Made by a program: the position numbers and the translations under genes. A stretch of 64,000 nucleotides of DNA from a virus (taxonomy: Duplodnaviria > Caudoviricetes). The notes beneath the pieces are model-generated. The model made no database searches and was not told the origin of the DNA. It saw only the letters and a list, made by a program, of their open reading frames with translations. Positions 3,226 to 13,069 of the stretch are shown here, piece after piece. Numbering within the stretch: position 1 is the stretch's first letter; every line of letters begins with the position of its first letter. The DNA is taken from the IMG/VR virus record IMGVR_UViG_3300012827_000001, positions 1-64,000 of that record. One strand, given 5' to 3'.

Positions 3226-4031
3226 ACCTCACGGGAGACGACTACTGCATTGCTGCGCACGACCCCGTCGTAGATTGTTGGATGCCCCGCGTTGATGCTG
3301 TCAGCGAACTCCTCGGCGCCGTCGGCATCGTGTGAGGTTGCGTAACCTACGCCGGGCCTGCCGAGACGGGACACGTCGAAACGCACACCCCACTGGGTCG
3401 TCGTCTCGGGCTGACGGGAGGCGAACCACGCCAGGGCGGCGTCGGTGAGCCTGGCGCCGACGCCGATGAGGTCGCCGTCGCCGATCGTGCCGTTCTGCCG
3501 CGCGGTGTCGAGCACGTCGTAGAGCACGTCGTCCAGCTCGCTCGCCAGAGACTCCCGGTCCTCGGCGGACGGGGCAGGGTCGCCCGTCCGCTCGGCCTCA
3601 GCGCGAGCGCGGAGCCATGCCTCGGCGATCGGATCGTCGTAGAGCGTGTCGTCGAGGTCCAGGAGCACGTCGTGGATGCGGTCGATGGTGCCGCCGCGCT
3701 TCTGTGCGGTCTGCAGGTCTGTGTCTGTCTCGTCGTACTGCTCGTGATCCTCGTAGGCGAGTGCAGCGATCCGCGCCAGGGCCATCCGGTAGCCAGGGCC
3801 GTCCTTGTCCTCCCGGTCCAGCGCGTCCACGTCGTCGGGGCGGTACAGGACCGTCACGGGTCCGTGATGCATGACGTACTCGGCGGTCACCCACCCGCTA
3901 CGCCCCGCCACCAGGTACTCGCGCTGCTCGTCGTCACCGTCCACCACTGCGACTCGACCGTAGCGATCCGACACGACTGCGCCTACCGGCAGGGCGTTCA
4001 ACTCTTCGAGGGTTCGGATCTGCTCGCTCAT
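3195..4031 (-). CDS. Multi-module hypothetical phage protein
   Basis: LEELNALPVGAVV...GPVTVLYRP module common in actinophages; GGAGG RBS. Confidence 0.7.
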   Translation of the reverse strand: MSEQIRTLEELNALPVGAVVSDRYGRVAVVDGDDEQREYLVAGRSGWVTAEYVMHHGPVTVLYRPDDVDALDREDKDGPGYRMALARIAALAYEDHEQYDETDTDLQTAQKRGGTIDRIHDVLLDLDDTLYDDPIAEAWLRARAEAERTGDPAPSAEDRESLASELDDVLYDVLDTARQNGTIGDGDLIGVGARLTDAALAWFASRQPETTTQWGVRFDVSRLGRPGVGYATSHDADGAEEFADSINAGHPTIYDGVVRSNAVVVSREVTEWKEVHDV

Positions 4032-4423
4032 CGCCGGAACACCTCCCCGACGGGGGTGACCTCGGCGAGTTGCCACGCGCTGACGCGGTGGCGACCCACC
4101 CAGGCGCCGTCGGGAAAGATCCCCATAGGGTCGCCTTCGCCGTCGAGGATGGCGGGCACGGGCGGCTCCTGCGCAACGCTGCCGACCTCGTGCACGAGGA
4201 TCACGGTCCCCGGCTTGGTCGGCAGGGCGGGGGTCGGACGCTCGGCGGAGACGAACTTCGCGACGGGTCCCGGCCCCCGGTCATCGGAGCGCAGCAACCA
4301 GCCCGCCACGGACAGCGCATTGTCGCTGTCGCCCGCGTAGCACGGACCGGTGTACTCATGACCGTGGTGGCGCCAGGTGACGATGTCACCGGGGCGGACG
4401 TCGGCCAGGTTGGTAATCTTCAT
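4028..4423 (-). CDS. Hypothetical protein
   Basis: Translationally coupled at both ends. Confidence 0.7.
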   Translation of the reverse strand: MKITNLADVRPGDIVTWRHHGHEYTGPCYAGDSDNALSVAGWLLRSDDRGPGPVAKFVSAERPTPALPTKPGTVILVHEVGSVAQEPPVPAILDGEGDPMGIFPDGAWVGRHRVSAWQLAEVTPVGEVFRR

Positions 4424-5448
4424 GCTTCCTCCATCTCGTTGAGAAGTTCATTGGCGCGGACCACGCCATCGGATGTGAGCTGCCGGCCGCGGGCACATAC
4501 CTGCACCAGCCCCTTCTGAATGAGGAGCTTCTCGGTGTGTCGAGGCGGGGTTGCCTCGTTGAGCGCCTGGGCGATGGTCTTCTCGCCTGCGGTGAAGTTC
4601 GGCGCGTAGAAGAGCTGCATCAGGTAGTCCTGGGCGACCCTGTCTAGCCCGTCGGGGGTCAAGCCGGACCAGGTGAACATGTCGTCCATCGGGAAGTCGC
4701 TGACCCCGTCCCAGTCCTGCCCCGACCCGATGACGGATGTGAGCAGGACCCGGGCGAGCTGGGTGATCTGCCGCGGGTTGCGGTTCGCGGCCTCGACGAT
4801 GGCTTCGCGGTTCCACTCCCCAGGGGAGTGCAGGCCCACCTCGGAGAAGATCCGCCGCGCGTTGAGGTCGAAGATCTTGCCCGCCTCCTCGGCTGTGTAG
4901 GACTCCAGGACGGGCTTGACGGTGAAGCGGGACAGGATCGCCTCGGGGAGCTTCTGTGCGTCGGTCGACGCCGCGATGACAGTGATGCTCGGGACTGCGG
5001 TCACTCCCTGCGAGGTGACGATGACGCCGTCCTGCAGGAATGGGAGCAGCCACTCGGCCTTCGCCTTCCCGCCAGCGACCGCGTTGTGGATCTCGTCCCA
5101 GAAGAGGATGTCGCCGTCCTGCATCCCGTTGAGGATGCGGACCGCGTCGGAGACCTCGACGACGCCCTGGACCTCCACGAGGCCGGCGTCCATCTCCTGG
5201 GCGATCAGCCGGGCCAGCGCGGACTTGCCGATGCCGGCCTGGCCGGAGGCGATCAGGACGTGGTCCATGCGCTTGCCGCGGGCCTTCGCGGTCACCGCGG
5301 ACGCTCGCAGGAACGCCTTCGCCTCGGCCTGCCCGACGTAGTCGCTCCAGGTGCGCGGGTAGTCGGTGCCGTCGAACAGCGCCTCGCCTCGCTTCGGGGT
5401 TGCTACCGCAGCCTGGCGCTTGCGGATCATGTCTCGGGTCGTGCTCAT
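4420..5448 (-). CDS. ruvB: RuvB-like AAA+ ATPase (Holliday junction branch-migration motor family)
   Basis: PRTWSDYVGQ, DHVLI.SG..GIGKS (Walker A), ILFWDEIH (Walker B), SRF arginine finger, NPR sensor II, C-terminal winged helix EKLLIQKGLV...RGR. Confidence 0.85.
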   Translation of the reverse strand: MSTTRDMIRKRQAAVATPKRGEALFDGTDYPRTWSDYVGQAEAKAFLRASAVTAKARGKRMDHVLIASGQAGIGKSALARLIAQEMDAGLVEVQGVVEVSDAVRILNGMQDGDILFWDEIHNAVAGGKAKAEWLLPFLQDGVIVTSQGVTAVPSITVIAASTDAQKLPEAILSRFTVKPVLESYTAEEAGKIFDLNARRIFSEVGLHSPGEWNREAIVEAANRNPRQITQLARVLLTSVIGSGQDWDGVSDFPMDDMFTWSGLTPDGLDRVAQDYLMQLFYAPNFTAGEKTIAQALNEATPPRHTEKLLIQKGLVQVCARGRQLTSDGVVRANELLNEMEEA

Positions 5449-6419
5449 GTGTCTCCCTTCAGGAGGTTGCCAGCGAGTGCGGCGAGGGACGCCTGGGCGA
5501 CGTCGGCCGCCGCGCTGACGGTGATGGTCTGGTCGTTGAGGAGGTCTGCGTAGTCCTGGGCTCGGCCCGTGAGCTCGTCGTAGCGGGCCCGGAGTTGGGA
5601 GTAGACGAGGGGGCTGACGTTCTTCTTGCGCGCCTCCTGCATCTTCGTGACGAGGTCGGCCATGTCGGTGGCGTGCTCGTCGGAGAACGCCTCCAGGAGT
5701 CGCTCGCGCTGGTTGGCGAGGTCGACGAGCGGGATGAGGTCGACGCGGCAGCCTTCGAGCACGCTGATCGCGTCGGCGAGGCCGTGCAGCTCTTCTGCGT
5801 GTGCCACGGGCACGAAGTTGACGCTCGGCTTGAGCTGGATCGCCTGGAGGTGCTTGATGTAGTCGAGCAGGAGGGTGCGGACCTTCACGCCATCCAGGGA
5901 TGAGCGGAACCGGTCGAACTTCGTCTTGATCTGTCCCACCATGTGGATGACACGCTCACGCTCGATGGGGACGAGCTTTGGGTCGACGACGAGCTGGAGC
6001 CGGGCGCTGCTCTCGTCCACCCGGTCGCCGACGCGGGCGGCGCGGAACAGACGGATCTCGCCCAGCCGCTCCCACTCGTCGAGGGTGTCGTGGACGTCGT
6101 CCCGCTTGTGTCGCATGATGACGCGGAGTTCAACCTCCGCGTTCCGGGACTTCGCCTCTTCGAGGCGTGCAACAGCGGTCACTCCCTGCCCGAGGGGCCA
6201 GGAGGACCGCTCGTGTGCACGCGTTGCCTTCTTGAACGCGTCGATGGAGCGCGACGGCTGGGGGATGCGCTTGACGTCGAGGCCGTTCTTCTGGAACGCC
6301 TCCACGAGCGCGTCACGGTCGTGGGCCCCGTCGACCCCTGTTGTGAGGGCCAGGTAGCCCAGCAGCGCGTCTTCGGGCAGCCGCCCGGATGAGTCCAGGT
6401 ATGTACGCAGTTCGCTCAC
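5445..6419 (-). CDS. Conserved phage hypothetical protein (DUF6744-like), coiled-coil C-terminus
   Basis: LLGYLA...PSRSIDAFKKAT pattern recalled for this family; lies beside the AAA/VWA genes. Confidence 0.5.
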   Translation of the reverse strand: MSELRTYLDSSGRLPEDALLGYLALTTGVDGAHDRDALVEAFQKNGLDVKRIPQPSRSIDAFKKATRAHERSSWPLGQGVTAVARLEEAKSRNAEVELRVIMRHKRDDVHDTLDEWERLGEIRLFRAARVGDRVDESSARLQLVVDPKLVPIERERVIHMVGQIKTKFDRFRSSLDGVKVRTLLLDYIKHLQAIQLKPSVNFVPVAHAEELHGLADAISVLEGCRVDLIPLVDLANQRERLLEAFSDEHATDMADLVTKMQEARKKNVSPLVYSQLRARYDELTGRAQDYADLLNDQTITVSAAADVAQASLAALAGNLLKGDT

Positions 6420-6442
6420 TGTCGCCTCCTTTCGGGCGCAAC

Positions 6443-6476
6443 AAAAAGACCCCCCGGGCTCTCCGGGGGGTCTTTC
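6443..6476. terminator. Intrinsic terminator (possibly bidirectional)
   Basis: AAAGACCCCCCGG/CCGGGGGGTCTTT 13-bp stem with flanking A/T runs. Confidence 0.8.
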
Positions 6477-6487
6477 AGGGGGTGGGG

Positions 6488-6973
6488 TCAGTCGACGGGG
6501 CGCAACCAGGGGCTGTCGGCCTCAGTCGCCCACGTCGAGGCGTCCACCTGACCGGTCACGGCCACCTGAATGGCCCAGGCGATGATGTCCACCAGGTGGA
6601 CCGGGGTGAGGTCGCCACCTCGACCAGACGTGCGCACCACATCGAACGGGACCCGGTCCAGGGCCTCGATCGCAGCCTGCACCCGCTGCCGCGCTGGCTG
6701 GTTGAACTGGGCGAAGTACCCAGCGCTCTCCAGGGCGTCGTACACATCGGGCAGGGTGCTGATGACTGCCCGCTCACGGTGGAGTGCCCGCGGGGTCACA
6801 TCCAGGCCAGTACCGGGCTTCAGGGCCTCCGGGGCGTGCGCGAACAGGGACGTGAGGAGCGCGTCCGCGTTCGCGTTGACGATGTCCACGTCCAGCTCGG
6901 ACAGGGGCCGGGAGCCGATGGCCCGTAGGTTGCGGGCGAAGTCCTCCGCGCGCTGGGCGAGCTCCTCGTACAC
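6488..6973 (-). CDS. Hypothetical protein
   Basis: GGAGG RBS before GTG6973. Confidence 0.65.
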   Translation of the reverse strand: MYEELAQRAEDFARNLRAIGSRPLSELDVDIVNANADALLTSLFAHAPEALKPGTGLDVTPRALHRERAVISTLPDVYDALESAGYFAQFNQPARQRVQAAIEALDRVPFDVVRTSGRGGDLTPVHLVDIIAWAIQVAVTGQVDASTWATEADSPWLRPVD

Positions 6974-7072
6974 GATGCCTCCGACTGCTGTAGTCAACTA
7001 GGTCTCCTTTGCCAGTAGAACGTTAGGGGGTGGGTCAGGCGTGCTGCATGTCGGTCAGGTAACCAACTCGGG

Positions 7073-8533
7073 TCATGCCTGCCGCATGATGTCCGCCGCC
7101 TGGGTGACGTCCGTGAGGTCCGCCACCGTGCGGACGTTGTCCGCGATCTGCTGCAGCGAGGCCGGTCGTCCGCCGTATCCCGATGACACGTAGATGCCGT
7201 AGCACCGCACGGCCAGCCGGTTGCGGGTCTCCATCCACTCGTCCTGGAACGAGATGGCGGGGGCCTCTCCGTCTGTGACGAACACAATGTCCGGCTTGTG
7301 GAGAGTTGACGCCTTCACGAGGTCCAGTGCGCGACGCAGGGGCTTCTCGAACGACGTGCCGCCGTTGAGGAATCCCTCCGCCATGTCGAGGACCTGCTCG
7401 CGGATGACCCGCCCGCCGGGGAAGGAGAACTCCCTCAGCGGCTCGTAGTTCGAGCCGAAGCCGATGTAGTGGAAGTCCCGCTTCTGCCGGGTGGCCTGGT
7501 CCAGGAGCGCCAGCGCTAGGCCCTTCGCCCACATCTCGCCGGCCCCGCCCATCGAGCCGGACTCGTCTGCCACGACGATGATCGGGCCCTTGCCGTCACG
7601 CTCACGACCGCGGAGCTTCTTGATGAGCAGCCCACGCTCGACATACCGACGCCAGAAGTCCTTCCTCGTCTCGTCCGATGCGAGCGAAATCATCTCCTGG
7701 GTCGTCAGCCGCGTGAGGTCGTCGCCGAGTTCGACGCCAACCACCTCGTCTGAACCGTCCACGCTGCGCCGCCGGTACTCCGCCGACGCGAGCTGCTTGA
7801 ACGCTCCGATGAGCTGGGCGAACTTCTTGAGCTTGGACCCAGACAGCCGCTTCGCGAGCGCCGCCCGGTCCTTGAAGTTCATGCGCCGCAGGTCGCCGGG
7901 CTCCACCCCGTATGAGGACGCAGTCTCGCTCTCCTCCTCTGCCTGCTTGGTGGCGTCGTTGATGGCCTTGCGCATCTGGCTGCGCGCAGCCGCCGATGCC
8001 TGCTGCGACTGCTGCTGGAGGTCCTCCAGTGCCTGCTGTGCCTGTTGTGCGGCCTGGTCGGCTGCGTCCTGGTCTCCACCGTTCGCAGCGTCTTGCTGTG
8101 CCTGCCGCGCGTCTTCCACGGCCTGCTGTGCGGCGTCGGCTTGCTCCTTGAGGTCCGCGGCCTTGCTGAGTGCGTTCTCGACAGCCCCCTCCAGGGCCAT
8201 GAAGCCCGCGGCGGAGGCGTAGTTGTCACCGACGGTGTACTCGCGCAGCCGCTCCAGCTCGGGGAGTCTTGCGACATCCTCGATGACCTGCCGGTTCGGG
8301 ATGTGCGTCGCCTTCATGTGCTGCGGGTCCCGGAATGTGGGGTCCCCCTTGGCCAGCAGGTTGAAGGCGTCCTGGGTGAAGTCCTCCGCGTAGTCGTAGT
8401 TCTGCTGGAGCTTCTTGACGATGTCGTCGAGCGTGGACGACTCCTCACGGACCTCGTCCCACATGGCCTTGTCGAACCGGTCATGTGGGACGGCGTCCGT
8501 GTGCTCCTGGTCGGGGTCGAGGAAGTCGAACAT
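7073..8533 (-). CDS. VWA/MIDAS-domain protein (ViaA/YieM-like)
   Basis: VVADESGSMGG (DxSxS), GGTSF, VFVTDG; Gln/Ala-rich linker. Confidence 0.88.
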   Translation of the reverse strand: MFDFLDPDQEHTDAVPHDRFDKAMWDEVREESSTLDDIVKKLQQNYDYAEDFTQDAFNLLAKGDPTFRDPQHMKATHIPNRQVIEDVARLPELERLREYTVGDNYASAAGFMALEGAVENALSKAADLKEQADAAQQAVEDARQAQQDAANGGDQDAADQAAQQAQQALEDLQQQSQQASAAARSQMRKAINDATKQAEEESETASSYGVEPGDLRRMNFKDRAALAKRLSGSKLKKFAQLIGAFKQLASAEYRRRSVDGSDEVVGVELGDDLTRLTTQEMISLASDETRKDFWRRYVERGLLIKKLRGRERDGKGPIIVVADESGSMGGAGEMWAKGLALALLDQATRQKRDFHYIGFGSNYEPLREFSFPGGRVIREQVLDMAEGFLNGGTSFEKPLRRALDLVKASTLHKPDIVFVTDGEAPAISFQDEWMETRNRLAVRCYGIYVSSGYGGRPASLQQIADNVRTVADLTDVTQAADIMRQA

Positions 8534-9693
8534 CAGAACGAGCCCGGCTCGGTGGAGTCGATCCCCAGCAGCGCCAGACCCTCCCGGCGGATCTGTCCGG
8601 TCATGCGCTTCACCTTTGTGAGCGTCGGGGAGTCGGGCGACTTCTTGAGGAGCTCGGCCACCTTCTTGTCGACCTTGCCAGCCTTACCGTTCGCCTCGGT
8701 GATGAAGGCTGCAAGGTTCGCGCCCGCCTCACCCTTGCGCGCTGCGATCTGCTCTAGCAGCTCCTGGACCGAGTCCAGCAGCTCCAGTGCCTCCTCCTCG
8801 ACGGGGGAGGCGACCGAGAGGATGGTCCGCTCGACCTTCTTCTTCTGGGCGAGGTCCTCCCACAGCGTGTAGCGCAGTGCACGCAGGTCGTCGACCTCTG
8901 CGATGAGGCGGTCCGCGAGGAACGCGGAGGCCCGCACCACGGACATGCTGGCTCGCCAGCGTCGGTCGGAGACCGTGATCCCCTCCTTGCGCAGCGCGCG
9001 CCGGATCTCCAGGACCCCGTCGAGGACGTTGTCCGGGACGATGACCTGCGCCACCTGGGTCACGGCCTCGTTGAGGTCGTCGTAGGTGAGGGTCGTGCCG
9101 ACGCCGTCACGGTTGGGGCGCTCCATGAGCTCCTTGAAGTGCGCGTCCGACGACAGGTAGTCCACCGTGGAGCGAACCAGGAACCGGTCCCACAGCGCCG
9201 CTGCGTCCTCCGACTCGCCTGCGGGGTGCTCGTTCGACGCAGCGAAGATGCTGTGCAGCGGGATCGGGTGCGCGGATCGCCCGTCCACCACCTCGTGCTT
9301 GAGGCGCTCGTTCGCCGCCGCGAGGAGGTCGTGCCCCAGGGTCGGGGACATCTTCCCGGCCTCGTCCAGGAACGCGAAGTGCGCCGTGGTGAGGAAGCCA
9401 GCGTCCTTGCGCCGAAACTCGCCCTTCTCGGACAGTAGGGGCAGATCGTAGGGGCCGAGCACGGCCTGATCGGGTCGGTTCTTGGACAGGAGCTGCTCGA
9501 AGTAGGCGGCCCCTGTGATGCGGGACGAGAAGTCCCGGACGATCTCGGACTTCGCCGTGCCGGGGGGGCCCAGAATGAACGCGTGCTGCCGGGTCAGTGC
9601 AGCGAACAGCATGCCGTCGATGACGTCCTCACGCTCGTAGAACGCCTCGTTCAGCTCAGCGCGGATCCTCCCGAGCGTCGTTGCGGTGCTCAT
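8533..9693 (-). CDS. MoxR-family AAA+ ATPase (RavA-like)
   Basis: YEREDVI, LGPPGTAKS (Walker A), FLDEAGK (Walker B), ASNE, ALWDRF; TGATG-coupled to the VWA gene. Confidence 0.9.
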   Translation of the reverse strand: MSTATTLGRIRAELNEAFYEREDVIDGMLFAALTRQHAFILGPPGTAKSEIVRDFSSRITGAAYFEQLLSKNRPDQAVLGPYDLPLLSEKGEFRRKDAGFLTTAHFAFLDEAGKMSPTLGHDLLAAANERLKHEVVDGRSAHPIPLHSIFAASNEHPAGESEDAAALWDRFLVRSTVDYLSSDAHFKELMERPNRDGVGTTLTYDDLNEAVTQVAQVIVPDNVLDGVLEIRRALRKEGITVSDRRWRASMSVVRASAFLADRLIAEVDDLRALRYTLWEDLAQKKKVERTILSVASPVEEEALELLDSVQELLEQIAARKGEAGANLAAFITEANGKAGKVDKKVAELLKKSPDSPTLTKVKRMTGQIRREGLALLGIDSTEPGSF

Positions 9694-9780
9694 GGACCTC
9701 CTTCGGGTTTGTGGTGTTCTTGGGTGCGGGGATGATGTTCAACCGCTTGATGCGGTGGTTGGGCAGCGGTACGTCGAAGG

Positions 9781-10068
9781 TCAGAGCCATGTGCGCCCCT
9801 CGTCGTGCGCAGACCATGCGTCCTCGACCACGCGGTCCTCCTCGTCGGAGAGCCACTGCTCGAAGAGGCCGTCGTCGCGTGCGTACTCGCGGGCGAGCTC
9901 CTCGTCGTCGGACTCGTCCCACTGCCGGGCGAGCTCTTCCTCGTCGGGCTCGCCCTCCATGTACAGGGGCCAGCCGTCGGTCTTCTCGAAGAACTTGGAC
10001 TCCTCGGCGAGGGAGTTGGTGATCCCGTCTGCGATGTTGTTTGTGATCTCGTCTGCGATGTTTCCCAT
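9781..10068 (-). CDS. Highly acidic small protein
   Basis: 31 Asp/Glu versus 7 Lys/Arg in 95 aa; GGAGG RBS. Confidence 0.7.
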   Translation of the reverse strand: MGNIADEITNNIADGITNSLAEESKFFEKTDGWPLYMEGEPDEEELARQWDESDDEELAREYARDDGLFEQWLSDEEDRVVEDAWSAHDEGRTWL

Positions 10069-10313
10069 CAGTCCTCCTTGCCAGGAAACTTGGGTCGCGT
10101 CGCGATGCACTCGAAGCTCTCCTCAGGAAAGGAGAGATCAACCACCCATTCTCGACCGTTGCTGCGGTCGACAACTTCATAGACGGCGGCCTTGGCGCGC
10201 TCGCCGGCCCAGTCGAGAAAGGACTGAACCGCCTCCCGGGGTGTGATCCCGACGGGGTCAAAGATGTCGACGGTAAGGGACACCTTGTACTCGGTCCCCG
10301 TGTGGTTGCTCAT
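10068..10313 (-). CDS. Hypothetical protein
   Basis: AAGGAG RBS before ATG10313. Confidence 0.65.
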   Translation of the reverse strand: MSNHTGTEYKVSLTVDIFDPVGITPREAVQSFLDWAGERAKAAVYEVVDRSNGREWVVDLSFPEESFECIATRPKFPGKED

Positions 10314-10323
10314 GGTGCTCCTT

Positions 10324-11217
10324 TCAAGAAAGGGGGAGGTCGGCGAGTTGCTCGACCTTTGCGTCCGTGAGGACCAGGTCGCTGCGCACGCCCATGTAGA
10401 CAGCACTGCGGAGTCGGTTGTCGGCCGACCTGCCGAGGGCCTGCACCTCCACGAGGAAGGGCTTGCCGGCGCTGAGCGACTCCCGCAGGGAACGCTCCTC
10501 GTCTACGGTCCAGCCCGTGCCGACCCGACCGATGGGCACCGGCCGAAAGTCGTCCAGCAGGGCGAGCTCGATGCTCAGGCCCCTCGTGGACCCTGCCCCT
10601 GCTGCGATGGCCGTGACACGGCGCAACGCCTTGAACTTGATCCAGGACTCGCACCGCTTGCCGGGGATGTACAGCGACGACTTCTGCTTGACGACGATGC
10701 CCTCGCCGCCAGCCTCGACGACCTCGCGCCACAGCCCGAGGGTGTCCTTCGACGCCTTGACGGGGCGGATGTTGCGTCGCTTGCGGAGGATCCCCTCCAG
10801 GAGGACTCGGCGCTGCCGGTAGCGGATCTTCGTGAGGTCCTGCCCGCCGCACGACAGGATGTCGAACGCGCGGAACTCGCACGGGTCGGCCTTCGCGGCC
10901 GTGTCGAATCCTGATGTGCGCTTGTCCCGCTTCAGCACCGTGCTGAGCGTGCCGTCACGGGGGACGATCTCGCCGTCCAGGACCATCGCACTGAGTCGCT
11001 GCCGGGCGATCTCCGGGTACTTCTCGGTGACCTCCACGCCGTTGCGGTTCCAGATGCGACAAGAGCGGCCGTCCGATTCGACGACCGCTCTGATTCCATC
11101 TTCCTTGACCTCGGCCATCCAGTCGGCCCGTGAGGCGATCTCCGTCAGGAGGATGGGCCGCCTACCACTGGCGCCGGTGCTCGGCACCGCCAGCATGGGG
11201 GAGTAGGGGCTACTCAT
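10324..11217 (-). CDS. ATP-dependent DNA ligase (stand-alone LigD-ligase/LigC-like: adenylation plus OB domains)
   Basis: Motif I EVKEDGIRA, III LDGEIV, IIIa FRAFDIL, IV EGIVVK, V YIPGKR..SWIKFK. Confidence 0.93.
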   Translation of the reverse strand: MSSPYSPMLAVPSTGASGRRPILLTEIASRADWMAEVKEDGIRAVVESDGRSCRIWNRNGVEVTEKYPEIARQRLSAMVLDGEIVPRDGTLSTVLKRDKRTSGFDTAAKADPCEFRAFDILSCGGQDLTKIRYRQRRVLLEGILRKRRNIRPVKASKDTLGLWREVVEAGGEGIVVKQKSSLYIPGKRCESWIKFKALRRVTAIAAGAGSTRGLSIELALLDDFRPVPIGRVGTGWTVDEERSLRESLSAGKPFLVEVQALGRSADNRLRSAVYMGVRSDLVLTDAKVEQLADLPLS

Positions 11218-11404
11218 TTGCCTTCCAGAGGAGGTTCGCCAGCGTGGTTGCGTCGTCACCCTCCAGCAGTGGGACGTGGATGATGGGCCCGCCGCGGAGG
11301 AAGACTCTCACGTAGTTGAGGCCCAAATCGATTGCGTCCACGGCCCCGGCGCTCAGCCAGACACCGTTGTAGCGGATGTACCGGTTCGTGGTGCTAGACC
11401 ACAT
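11210..11404 (-). CDS. Hypothetical protein
   Basis: GGAGG RBS; coupled. Confidence 0.55.
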   Translation of the reverse strand: MWSSTTNRYIRYNGVWLSAGAVDAIDLGLNYVRVFLRGGPIIHVPLLEGDDATTLANLLWKANE

Positions 11405-11630
11405 CTATGCCACCTCCTTCTGAGTCTCCGCACTCGTGCTTGTTGAGTCGCCGCTGGATGTACAGCAGCTCGGAGATCGGAACCATGTAGTACGACGGGA
11501 TGAACATCGGCCTCCCCTCCACAACCAGTCCGTTGTGCACGGCGATGACGACGGGAATCAGCTCTTCCGGGTCGCCCTCAAGGTCGGCCAGGTCAGCGGC
11601 CGTGGGCTCGGAAATATTCACCCCGGTCAC
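11394..11630 (-). CDS. Hypothetical protein
   Basis: Coupled small ORF. Confidence 0.55.
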   Translation of the reverse strand: MTGVNISEPTAADLADLEGDPEELIPVVIAVHNGLVVEGRPMFIPSYYMVPISELLYIQRRLNKHECGDSEGGGIDVV

Positions 11631-11803
11631 GGTGCGCGCCCCTCAGCAATGAGGGCTGCGTAGAGCGCGCCCGAAAGGAACGCCTCGTTCATCGCCTGGC
11701 GCTCGCGAAAGCTGAAACCCTCGTCCTGCCACTCTCCCCGGAGGAACCCCGCCTGATCTTCGATCAGGTCTTCAAAGTCGTGCGGACGCTTCCAATTGCT
11801 CAT
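11627..11803 (-). CDS. Hypothetical protein
   Basis: AAGGAGG RBS before ATG11803. Confidence 0.6.
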   Translation of the reverse strand: MSNWKRPHDFEDLIEDQAGFLRGEWQDEGFSFRERQAMNEAFLSGALYAALIAEGRAP

Positions 11804-11969
11804 GTAGTGATGACCTCCTTGTTGAGTCGGACGCGGAGTCGACCAATGCACGCCTCGTCGTTGCACACGTAGCCGGTGATGACTGAGCCGTTGGCTGGGA
11901 TGGGGATCCGGGACTTCGCCAGGGGGCGCTGGACGGTGCCGCAGAAGTGACACTGCGGGCCGTGGGGGA

Positions 11970-12266
11970 TCACTTGACCAGATCCATGAAGTAGCGGTAC
12001 GCCTCGCGGCCCGTCACGAAGTGCGTGACGTCCTCGTGCTCATCGACGACATCGAGGGCGTATCGGTGAACGACAACGGTATTGGGCTCGTCGTCTGGAC
12101 CCCACGAGTCGTGCATCTTCACGTGCTGGTTCGCGTCGTACCACGTGGGCCCTCCCAGGACCATGAGCCCACCCGCGTAGTGCTTGACAAACGGCATGAT
12201 CTCGTACGAGGAAAGGGTCTGTGCGCAGATCGGGTTCTGTGCGCTGAATGCATCTACCTCGTTCAC
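11970..12266 (-). CDS. Hypothetical protein
   Basis: GTGA overlap with the Ku stop. Confidence 0.65.
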   Translation of the reverse strand: MNEVDAFSAQNPICAQTLSSYEIMPFVKHYAGGLMVLGGPTWYDANQHVKMHDSWGPDDEPNTVVVHRYALDVVDEHEDVTHFVTGREAYRYFMDLVK

Positions 12267-13069
12267 GCGCTCACCTTCTTCCTGGATCGGGTCGGCTTCT
12301 TCGTGGAGGCCACCTGTGCGGCGAGCTTCTCCATCAGGTCAGAAACGTTCGTCGCGGCGACAGTGGTCGAGGTGTCGGACTTGCCGACAACCGGCCGGCC
12401 CTTGATGAGGTCAGCCAGGCGAGACTCGACGTCGTCCATGTAGACCGCCGGGTCGTAGTCGCCCACCGTGAGCACCTGCTCAGCGAGAGCGACGAGTTGG
12501 TCGTTGCGCTCCAGCGCCACCTCGGGCGCCTCACGGACGTTGGCCGCGTTGACGCGCTCCTGAAGAACAAGGACGCCGCCGTACTGCCGCAGCCGGAACT
12601 GACCGACCGACGAACGGGGAGTCCAGCGCGCCATGAACGCCAACTCGGGGTGGTTGGTCACCAGCGCCAGGAGGGTGGTGTACGCGGCCTCGTGCCCCGG
12701 CTCCGGGGTGAGGTGGTACATCTTCTCCCCGACGGCGGTCAGGACCTCGACCTGCTCGGCGGGGTGGACGGTAACGTCGGCCTTCTTCTTGAAGCGGTTC
12801 GCGACCTCGGCGAGGACGTCCAGGTCCTCTGCCTCCAGGACCACCAAGCCGTCGTCAACGGGGCGAGCCTTCTTGAGTTGCTGGAAGGGAACCTCGCCGT
12901 GGGTGGGGCAGACCCTGGGCTGCCGGATCTGCGTGGGCTCGTGGTCGAGGTCGCACACCATCACGTTGCCGGACGCGCGGGGCTTGTCCAGGGCGGCGAA
13001 CATCGAGACCGATGCAGAGATGAGTCCCATGCTCAGGGCCACACCCTGAGCGACGCTACGTGGCGCCAT
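12263..13069 (-). CDS. ku: Ku (NHEJ DNA end-binding) protein
   Basis: Prokaryotic Ku pattern: MGLISASVSMFAA, QIRQPRVCPTHGEVPFQQLKKA, VVLEAEDLD, AYTTLLAL, C-terminal DLMEKL plus basic tail. Confidence 0.85.
   Translation of the reverse strand: MAPRSVAQGVALSMGLISASVSMFAALDKPRASGNVMVCDLDHEPTQIRQPRVCPTHGEVPFQQLKKARPVDDGLVVLEAEDLDVLAEVANRFKKKADVTVHPAEQVEVLTAVGEKMYHLTPEPGHEAAYTTLLALVTNHPELAFMARWTPRSSVGQFRLRQYGGVLVLQERVNAANVREAPEVALERNDQLVALAEQVLTVGDYDPAVYMDDVESRLADLIKGRPVVGKSDTSTTVAATNVSDLMEKLAAQVASTKKPTRSRKKVSA

Follow-up and report, generated by a model that had tools for sequence, protein, structure and literature searches.

A phage RuvB-like ATPase with a shortened RuvA-docking hairpin in a conserved cluster with Ku, DNA ligase, MoxR, vWA and DUF6744 genes

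Introduction

What would a RuvB-type motor do in a phage genome that encodes no RuvA? In cells, the targeting, loading and ATPase cycle of RuvB are thought to run via domain III of RuvA, which docks on the presensor-1 hairpin of RuvB. The question is raised by an uncultured soil phage (IMG/VR virus record IMGVR_UViG_3300012827_000001), whose record of 83,979 bp is rated 100% complete, has an exact 48-bp terminal repeat and a GC content of ~66%. Bases 1-64000 of this record, referred to below as the window, contain at 4420-5448 a gene for which an initial annotation had proposed a phage RuvB lacking part of the RuvA-binding hairpin, working either as a RuvA-independent DNA motor or with a novel phage loader. 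The open reading frame (ORF) at this position is real and lies on the minus strand. It starts with ATG, has a Shine-Dalgarno-like GAAGGGAG upstream of the start and encodes a RuvB-like AAA+ ATPase of 342 amino acids (aa), P0001, with a large ATPase domain, a lid and a C-terminal winged-helix head.

Results

Fold and catalytic motifs

Pfam profiles detected both a RuvB_N domain (E 6e-20, 72 bits; cut-off 27) and a RuvB_C winged helix (E 1e-5, 25.9 bits; cut-off 24.7) in P0001. The closest solved structures were all RuvB, aligned over residues 30-326 (E 5e-21 in the PDB), and a profile of the whole family matched solved RuvB with E-values down to 1e-31. An AlphaFold2 (AF2) model calculated from 22 sequences had a mean predicted local distance difference test (pLDDT) score of 91.3. 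When this model was compared with the PDB using Foldseek, the top 46 matches were all RuvB chains, to which it aligned across ~315-325 residues with template modeling (TM) scores of 0.7-0.84 for full-length chains, while the E-values beyond match 46 were ten orders of magnitude weaker. The Pfam and PDB matches, the AF2 model and the fold search agree on a complete RuvB-like protein comprising AAA+ and winged-helix parts, as had been annotated.

Motif conservation was assessed across 37 diverse members of the family, the most distant of which have 35% identity. On the minus strand of the window, Walker A (G69-S76, GQAGIGKS, 5221-5244) contains the invariant residues G72, G74 and K75, and Walker B (D118-E-I-H121, 5086-5097) the invariant residues E119 and H121. 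The segment 4927-4965 runs from sensor-1 T162 to the arginine finger R174, both invariant, as are P225 and R226 of sensor 2 (4771-4776). In the wing of the winged helix (R320-G321-R322, 4483-4491) G321 is invariant, and at least 90% conservation was found for R322 and for D118 of Walker B. Three features set the family apart from canonical RuvB. Walker B is followed by a family-specific insertion of three residues, GGK, seen in comparison with the RuvB of four species; the residue after sensor-1 T162 is an aspartate (D163) in 92% of the members, where canonical RuvB has an arginine (ATTR to ATTD); and residues 1-30 (window 5359-5448) form an N-terminal extension with a conserved P-K-R-G ... 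F-x-G-T-x-Y-P pattern that has no equivalent in cellular RuvB and was modelled at low confidence (pLDDT 63-72).

Six homologues (P0135, P0167, P0208, P0245, P0260 and L070:4171-6345) are long proteins of 640-724 aa that contain LAGLIDADG or Hom_end inteins, inserted at the lysine of the Walker A GK or immediately past the D-E of Walker B. Inteins typically occupy such sites in indispensable enzymes. On the strength of the invariant motifs and these insertion sites, the possibility of an inactive or decaying gene was rejected.

The only PHROG families matched carry the name 'clamp loader of DNA polymerase' (E 2e-13 and 8e-11), with the matches confined to residues 22-231, and the NCBIfam models of DnaX and delta' matched nothing but the Walker A region (residues 23-87, E 1e-4 to 5e-6). 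A clamp-loader AAA+ identity was rejected, since these matches are partial, covering the ATPase half or Walker A, and the fold search ranks RuvB first. The PHROG label is a naming trap.

Residues of Thermus thermophilus RuvB that contact DNA include R300 and R302, which bind the DNA backbone, as well as R104 and R101 (bioRxiv 10.1101/2022.09.22.509074). The wing arginines are kept in the phage protein, R320 and R322 aligning to R300 and R302, and K128 stands at the position of R104. One homologue of 763 aa (P0194) carries, C-terminal to its RuvB-like ATPase domain, an Mrr_cat restriction-endonuclease domain in the place of the winged-helix head, and this fusion to an Mrr-type nuclease points to DNA as the substrate.

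The presensor-1 hairpin

In the RuvAB complex, domain III of RuvA sits on a hydrophobic surface formed by helix α3 and the presensor-1 hairpin of RuvB, and tethers and activates the motor (PMC9477746; bioRxiv 10.1101/2022.09.22.509074). The phage hairpin (G141-V152, 4993-5028, minus strand) consists of exactly 12 residues between Q139-D140 and P153-S-I-T-V, as counted in the initial annotation, compared with 20 at the same position in T. thermophilus RuvB, in keeping with the ~20 residues given there for E. coli RuvB. Aligned to bacterial RuvBs, the hairpin is not intact: the family profile shows the same 8-residue gap against the RuvB of each of Campylobacter, Streptococcus thermophilus, Thermotoga and Thermus, along with the 3-residue insertion that immediately follows Walker B and the loss of 2 residues right ahead of helix α3. 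Canonical spacing was also found in four cellular RuvBs of candidate-phyla bacteria, two of which were aligned residue by residue and gave the same gaps in the phage protein. In all, five cellular RuvBs from four phyla have a hairpin that exceeds the phage one by 8 residues. In the AF2 model, a β-hairpin is still present before sensor 1 (residues 142-151), though it is down to a 12-residue element with miniature strands of four residues each (142-145 and 148-151).

The shortening is shared by the family. The spacing from Walker B to the arginine finger is 55 in 148 of 199 relatives, as against 60 in canonical RuvB, and the segment from the acidic pair to the sensor-1 strand measures 15-18 residues in 176 of the 177 relatives in which it could be measured; the lone exception, with 24 residues, is a canonical RuvB. 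Because this segment is so uniform, the comparison marks the 8-residue deletion as a fixed family trait, neither a product of chance nor a local lesion. Both elements on which RuvA domain III docks carry family-wide deletions, of 2 residues in the α3 region and 8 in the hairpin. Hairpin length is constant within the family and G141, G148 and P153 are near-invariant, yet few parts of the protein vary as much as the tip (144-147 and 149-152), whose entropy is 2.0-3.35 bits against a protein mean of 1.85. Such variability is not what would be expected if the residual hairpin were a conserved binding surface for RuvA or another partner.

Other hairpin truncations were observed in more distant viral RuvB-like genes of 26-30% identity (L012-L018, on IMG/VR contigs of which some are 230-393 kb long), where the spacing from Walker B to the arginine finger is 56, or 48 or less, and RuvA_N is absent. 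The varied truncations together with the absence of RuvA_N suggest that the RuvA dock may have been lost repeatedly in viruses.

RuvA, RuvC and the replication arm

No match to the RuvA_N, RuvA_C or HHH_5 profiles was found anywhere in the complete 83,979-bp record, with positive search controls, so that ruvA is absent from the window, as annotated, and does not lie just outside it either. A search for RuvA_N in 10 further viral records that carry RuvB-like genes, including four that are 97-100% complete, was likewise negative, which brings the total to 11 viral records without a RuvA match, five of them 97-100% complete. The absence of ruvC, which had also been annotated, holds for the window but not for the genome, since a RuvC-like resolvase gene is located outside the window in the rightward arm (genome 75461-76006, plus strand).

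This arm (genome 64434-76006, L002:434-12006) encodes, besides the resolvase, a C5 cytosine methyltransferase, a PD-(D/E)XK nuclease, an AAA_24 (Sak4-like) ATPase and a fused DnaG-DnaB primase-helicase; none of the ten rightward-arm ORFs scanned was recognised as a DNA polymerase. The RuvB-like gene and its neighbours lie on the arm opposite these replication and recombination genes, and in the loci compared the RuvB-like gene is never found beside RuvC. Phage RuvC genes normally occur without RuvB (PMC7824862).

Against the NCBIfam RuvB equivalogs PRK00080 and TIGR00635, P0001 scored 113.7 bits (cut-off 282) and 98.2 bits (cut-off 299), respectively. Because of these sub-cut-off scores, the truncated docking hairpin and the absence of RuvA, P0001 is a member of the RuvB superfamily and not an equivalog of the RuvB of RuvABC.

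A canonical ruvB was observed in a Rhodothermales metagenome-assembled genome (MAG; G011:C6:3186959-3188953, L077/L081) as a single open frame of 869 aa, in which the RuvB_N match is split by ~1.5 kb, probably an intein. In this MAG, ruvA lies 250 kb from the canonical ruvB, and a short-hairpin RuvB-like gene is found on a separate 74-kb contig.

The six-gene cluster

The RuvB-like gene belongs to a group of six genes, all co-oriented on the minus strand within ~10 kb (window 4420-13069). The group comprises a Ku homologue of 268 aa (12263-13069; Pfam Ku, and TIGR02772 Ku_bact at E 3e-20, below the cut-off), an ATP-dependent DNA ligase whose nearest family is the non-homologous end joining (NHEJ) ligase domain (10324-11259; Pfam DNA_ligase_A_M at E 2e-30, TIGR02779 at E 2e-41, below the cut-off), a RavA-like MoxR-type AAA+ ATPase of 386 aa (8533-9693; Pfam bpMoxR, AAA_5 and AAA_lid_8, NCBIfam RavA below the cut-off), a ViaA-like vWA-domain protein of 486 aa (7073-8533; Pfam VWA_2, NCBIfam ViaA below the cut-off) and a DUF6744 protein of 324 aa (5445-6419; Pfam E 3e-20), whose stop overlaps the RuvB-like start.

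To compare gene content, 70 loci were taken from collections of viral, metagenome and genome sequences, and their ORFs were searched with the window proteins. The full six-gene set was present in loci with a RuvB-like identity of at least ~39% and enough flanking sequence (L003, L019-L022, L026, L029, L033, L035, L036, L040, L041 and L048). A partial set, with a short contig or an undetected member, was found in L023, L028, L030, L034, L042, L044, L045, L050, L051 and L056, and a partial set at 27-39% RuvB-like identity in L064, L069, L070 and L076, while no cluster members were detected in L049 and L052 (35-38% identity). About 20 independent loci keep the cluster down to ~39% identity, it is partly retained down to 27-33%, and three gene orders occur: Ku-ligase-MoxR-vWA-DUF6744-RuvB-like, as in the window, Ku-ligase-MoxR-RuvB-like-vWA-DUF6744, and Ku-RuvB-like-ligase-DUF6744. 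The six-gene cluster is a conserved, reshuffled set of which the RuvB-like gene is a constant member.

The family is large, with 107 clusters at 50% identity matching at E 1e-30 or better. Among the 185,579 species genomes of GTDB only two members were found, both on MAG contigs. A metagenome scan with a broad alignment gave 598 pattern matches and 0 confirmed ones, and a narrower alignment was then used. No cluster protein matched a defence system in PADLOC, and no description of the cluster was found in the literature on DUF6744 or on MoxR, vWA and RuvB in phages. A megablast search of 7 kb against cultured phages gave no match, and the nearest cultured relative of the large terminase is a remote one, at 33.5% identity. 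Contigs of 494 kb and 441 kb were reported for P0001 and P0010.

Two small ORFs accompany the cluster in the window. One of 131 aa (4028-4423, minus strand) lies downstream of the RuvB-like gene and is start/stop-coupled to it, the RuvB-like stop overlapping its start by the same ATGA-type 4 nt seen upstream; it has neither a family match nor a counterpart in related loci. The other, of 169 aa (6488-6997, minus strand), lies between the vWA and DUF6744 genes, shows a weak sub-threshold match to DUF6308 and likewise has no counterpart in related loci.

DUF6744

The initial annotation had singled out the adjacent, coupled 324-aa protein as a possible loader. The coupling itself is real, with the start of the RuvB-like gene lying over the stop of the 324-aa gene in a 4-nt ATGA overlap. 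This product belongs to DUF6744, a mostly viral family, and in the loci compared the DUF6744 gene always follows vWA. Seven loci have an alternative order in which the RuvB-like gene comes directly after MoxR, and in those that reach further (L033, L035, L036 and L042) the vWA gene sits between the RuvB-like and DUF6744 genes; in L003, L019, L040, L041 and L045 the two genes are 0.3-4.6 kb apart. A trio of DUF6744 (E 6e-61), MoxR and vWA was also found in the cultured, 177-kb Moorella phage MTATph1 (L073, record 112731-116922), in which neither Ku nor a RuvB-like gene over the cut-off was detected. Because alternative orders separate the two genes and the DUF6744 trio also occurs without a RuvB-like gene, the comparison of loci indicates that the start/stop coupling in the window is a local arrangement and not a family rule. 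From its gene neighbourhoods, DUF6744 seems to belong with MoxR and vWA as the third member of one unit, and not to be a loader specific to RuvB.

The predicted structure of the DUF6744 protein (pLDDT 80.7) combines a β-rich N-terminal half with a helical bundle. Foldseek and VIA found no RuvA-like, OB or helix-hairpin-helix match for this model, the β-rich half being barely tested, and the sole match was a generic three-helix bundle at residues 232-324. A predicted complex of the RuvB-like and DUF6744 proteins scored 0.00, which gives no verdict and was counted neither way.

Discussion

Taken together, the results place the protein in a divergent branch of RuvB-family AAA+ proteins that is specific to phages, and we consider it fairly probable that it acts as a hexameric, ATP-driven motor on double-stranded DNA, independently of RuvA, within a phage DNA-end or repair module. 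The gene context suggests that RuvB in phages may have a different job from that in classical recombination. Of the two options raised at the outset, the RuvA-independent motor fits the comparative evidence, namely the missing RuvA, the deletions in the docking surface and the variable hairpin tip, while the adjacent 324-aa protein as a loader was not supported, given its separation from the RuvB-like gene in the second gene order, the MTATph1 trio without RuvB and the lack of a RuvA-like fold match. The ring would reach DNA without RuvA, either because it slips over free ends or because another protein of the cluster recruits it; since it could thread over the same free ends that are used by Ku and ligase, no junction-specific loader would be needed. 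In such a module, Ku and ligase would have the task of protecting and sealing the ends of the phage genome or breaks in it, and the motor would serve the DNA-end transaction of the cluster by moving along the duplex, where it may remodel or clear protein-DNA complexes or shift branched structures near the ends, and would not act as a classical RuvAB junction motor. A precedent for RuvA-independent helicase activity of a RuvB exists in Mycoplasma pneumoniae (PMC3364216).

Several observations weigh against this proposal. The residue corresponding to T. thermophilus R101 is N122, the arginine of the ATTR motif is a conserved aspartate, and R291 of S. thermophilus RuvB falls into a 2-residue gap. 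With these canonical contact positions lost, the protein may bind DNA in another way or act on another substrate; as judged from the alignments, DNA engagement is plausible and probably modified. The RuvC-like resolvase, Sak4-like ATPase and PD-(D/E)XK nuclease in the same genome make a role in junction processing possible. In addition, a tblastn search of 50,697 phage records with the RuvB-like protein gave only matches at 27-31% identity and none from actinophages, no close relative is present in any cultured phage, and clustering is evidence of a functional link, not of a mechanism.

A more specific function is conceivable, and we regard it as quite speculative. In eukaryotes, the AAA+ protein p97/VCP extracts Ku from repaired DNA. 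By analogy, a loader-free ring might thread on at phage DNA ends and strip off Ku rings, or the whole end-joining complex, that are topologically trapped after sealing by ligase, with MoxR, vWA and DUF6744 as the assembly or recruitment arm. This would be the viral counterpart of p97/VCP-driven Ku extraction. If true, this would reveal how prokaryotic systems can free DNA of Ku, and RuvB would gain a second cellular logic in addition to that at Holliday junctions.

Three other explanations are possible and are less well supported than a RuvA-independent motor. DUF6744, encoded by the coupled upstream gene, could substitute for RuvA in targeting and loading the RuvB-like ring. The 4-nt overlap in the window would fit such a role, as would the closeness of the DUF6744 and RuvB-like genes in the majority of loci, with the distant L064, L069, L070, L075 and L076 among them, and the report of the closest homologues of both proteins on equal-sized contigs. 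We nevertheless consider a DUF6744 loader unlikely, since the gene always comes after vWA, is parted from the RuvB-like gene by vWA in four loci and by 0.3-4.6 kb in five, occurs with MoxR and vWA in MTATph1 where the RuvB-like gene and Ku are missing, and encodes a protein whose model yielded only a generic three-helix bundle with no OB, helix-hairpin-helix or RuvA-like match.

Alternatively, host RuvA could load the phage ring onto Holliday junctions, and the ring would pass these on to the RuvC-like resolvase of the phage in the manner of cellular RuvABC. The genome does encode this resolvase along with a set of recombination proteins (the AAA_24/Sak4-like ATPase and the PD-(D/E)XK nuclease), a short hairpin and helix α3 persist in the model, and cross-species complementation between RuvA and RuvB is known for the cellular proteins (PMC9477746). 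Both halves of the interface with RuvA domain III, however, carry fixed deletions and the residual tip is unconserved, the gene is found on the opposite arm in the company of Ku, ligase, MoxR, vWA and DUF6744 and never beside RuvC, phage RuvC genes usually lack a RuvB (PMC7824862), and the scores of 114 and 98 bits stay below the NCBIfam RuvB equivalog cut-offs of 282 and 299; classical branch migration therefore appears improbable. No more probable is a RuvB-derived AAA+ protein that does not translocate DNA at all and works as a clamp-loader-like or chaperone-type protein remodeller alongside MoxR and vWA. The exclusive PHROG matches to clamp-loader families, the chaperone-type neighbours and the replacement of several canonical DNA-contact arginines, including the conserved change from arginine to aspartate after sensor 1, would be in line with a remodeller. 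It is opposed by the C-terminal RuvB winged helix with its conserved G-R wing, by a fold search in which the top 46 matches are RuvB and later ones far weaker, by the confinement of the DnaX and delta' matches (E 1e-4 to 5e-6) to the Walker A region, and by the homologue carrying an Mrr-type nuclease domain in place of the head, with DNA as its indicated substrate.

The RuvA-independent motor that we favour has partial parallels in known systems. With bacterial RuvB (T. thermophilus 1IXR/8EFV, S. thermophilus 7PBL) the phage protein shares the three-domain architecture, all motifs for nucleotide binding and hydrolysis, the position of the presensor-1 insert and a head with the G-R wing, at 24-28% identity and TM-scores of 0.7-0.84. 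It differs from bacterial RuvB in lacking 8 residues in the hairpin and 2 before α3, in having 3 more after Walker B and ATTD in place of ATTR, in its 30-residue N-terminal extension with PKRG, and also in its lack of a RuvA partner, its genomic context and its scores far under the equivalog cut-offs. RuvB(FH) of M. pneumoniae is similar in being a RuvB-family motor that does not need stimulation by RuvA (PMC3364216), but it is a cellular orthologue with RuvA still in its genome, and the relation is one of analogy only.

Ku among the accessory genes is a feature shared with the mycobacteriophages Corndog and Omega, to which the present phage adds an NHEJ-type ligase domain. Corndog and Omega reportedly use Ku for genome circularisation, and Ku and LigD act together in bacterial end joining. 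We know of no RuvB-like, MoxR, vWA or DUF6744 companions of Ku in these two phages. The MoxR and vWA proteins of the cluster match the families of known MoxR-vWA pairs (RavA-ViaA, Bacillus phage 0305phi8-36 and Moorella phage MTATph1), and MTATph1 also has DUF6744 beside the pair; 0305phi8-36 and MTATph1 differ in having no RuvB-like gene and no Ku. In 0305phi8-36 (L074, record 184863-192922), MoxR gp66 and vWA gp63 are found just downstream of the RecQ helicase gp70 and the WGR-domain protein gp71, a possible analogue of a helicase plus MoxR-vWA arrangement made from different parts.

In conclusion, this large and strongly conserved family has lost its docking element while keeping its engine intact, and is tied to Ku, ligase and MoxR-vWA rather than to RuvA and RuvC. 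It offers a natural separation-of-function variant for the abilities that RuvB has without RuvA, and MTATph1 would be a tractable system for DUF6744. The cluster indicates that uncultured high-GC soil phages commonly carry an unstudied module for DNA ends or repair. Should this module make end joining or the circularisation of genomes more efficient, it could serve as a compact toolkit.

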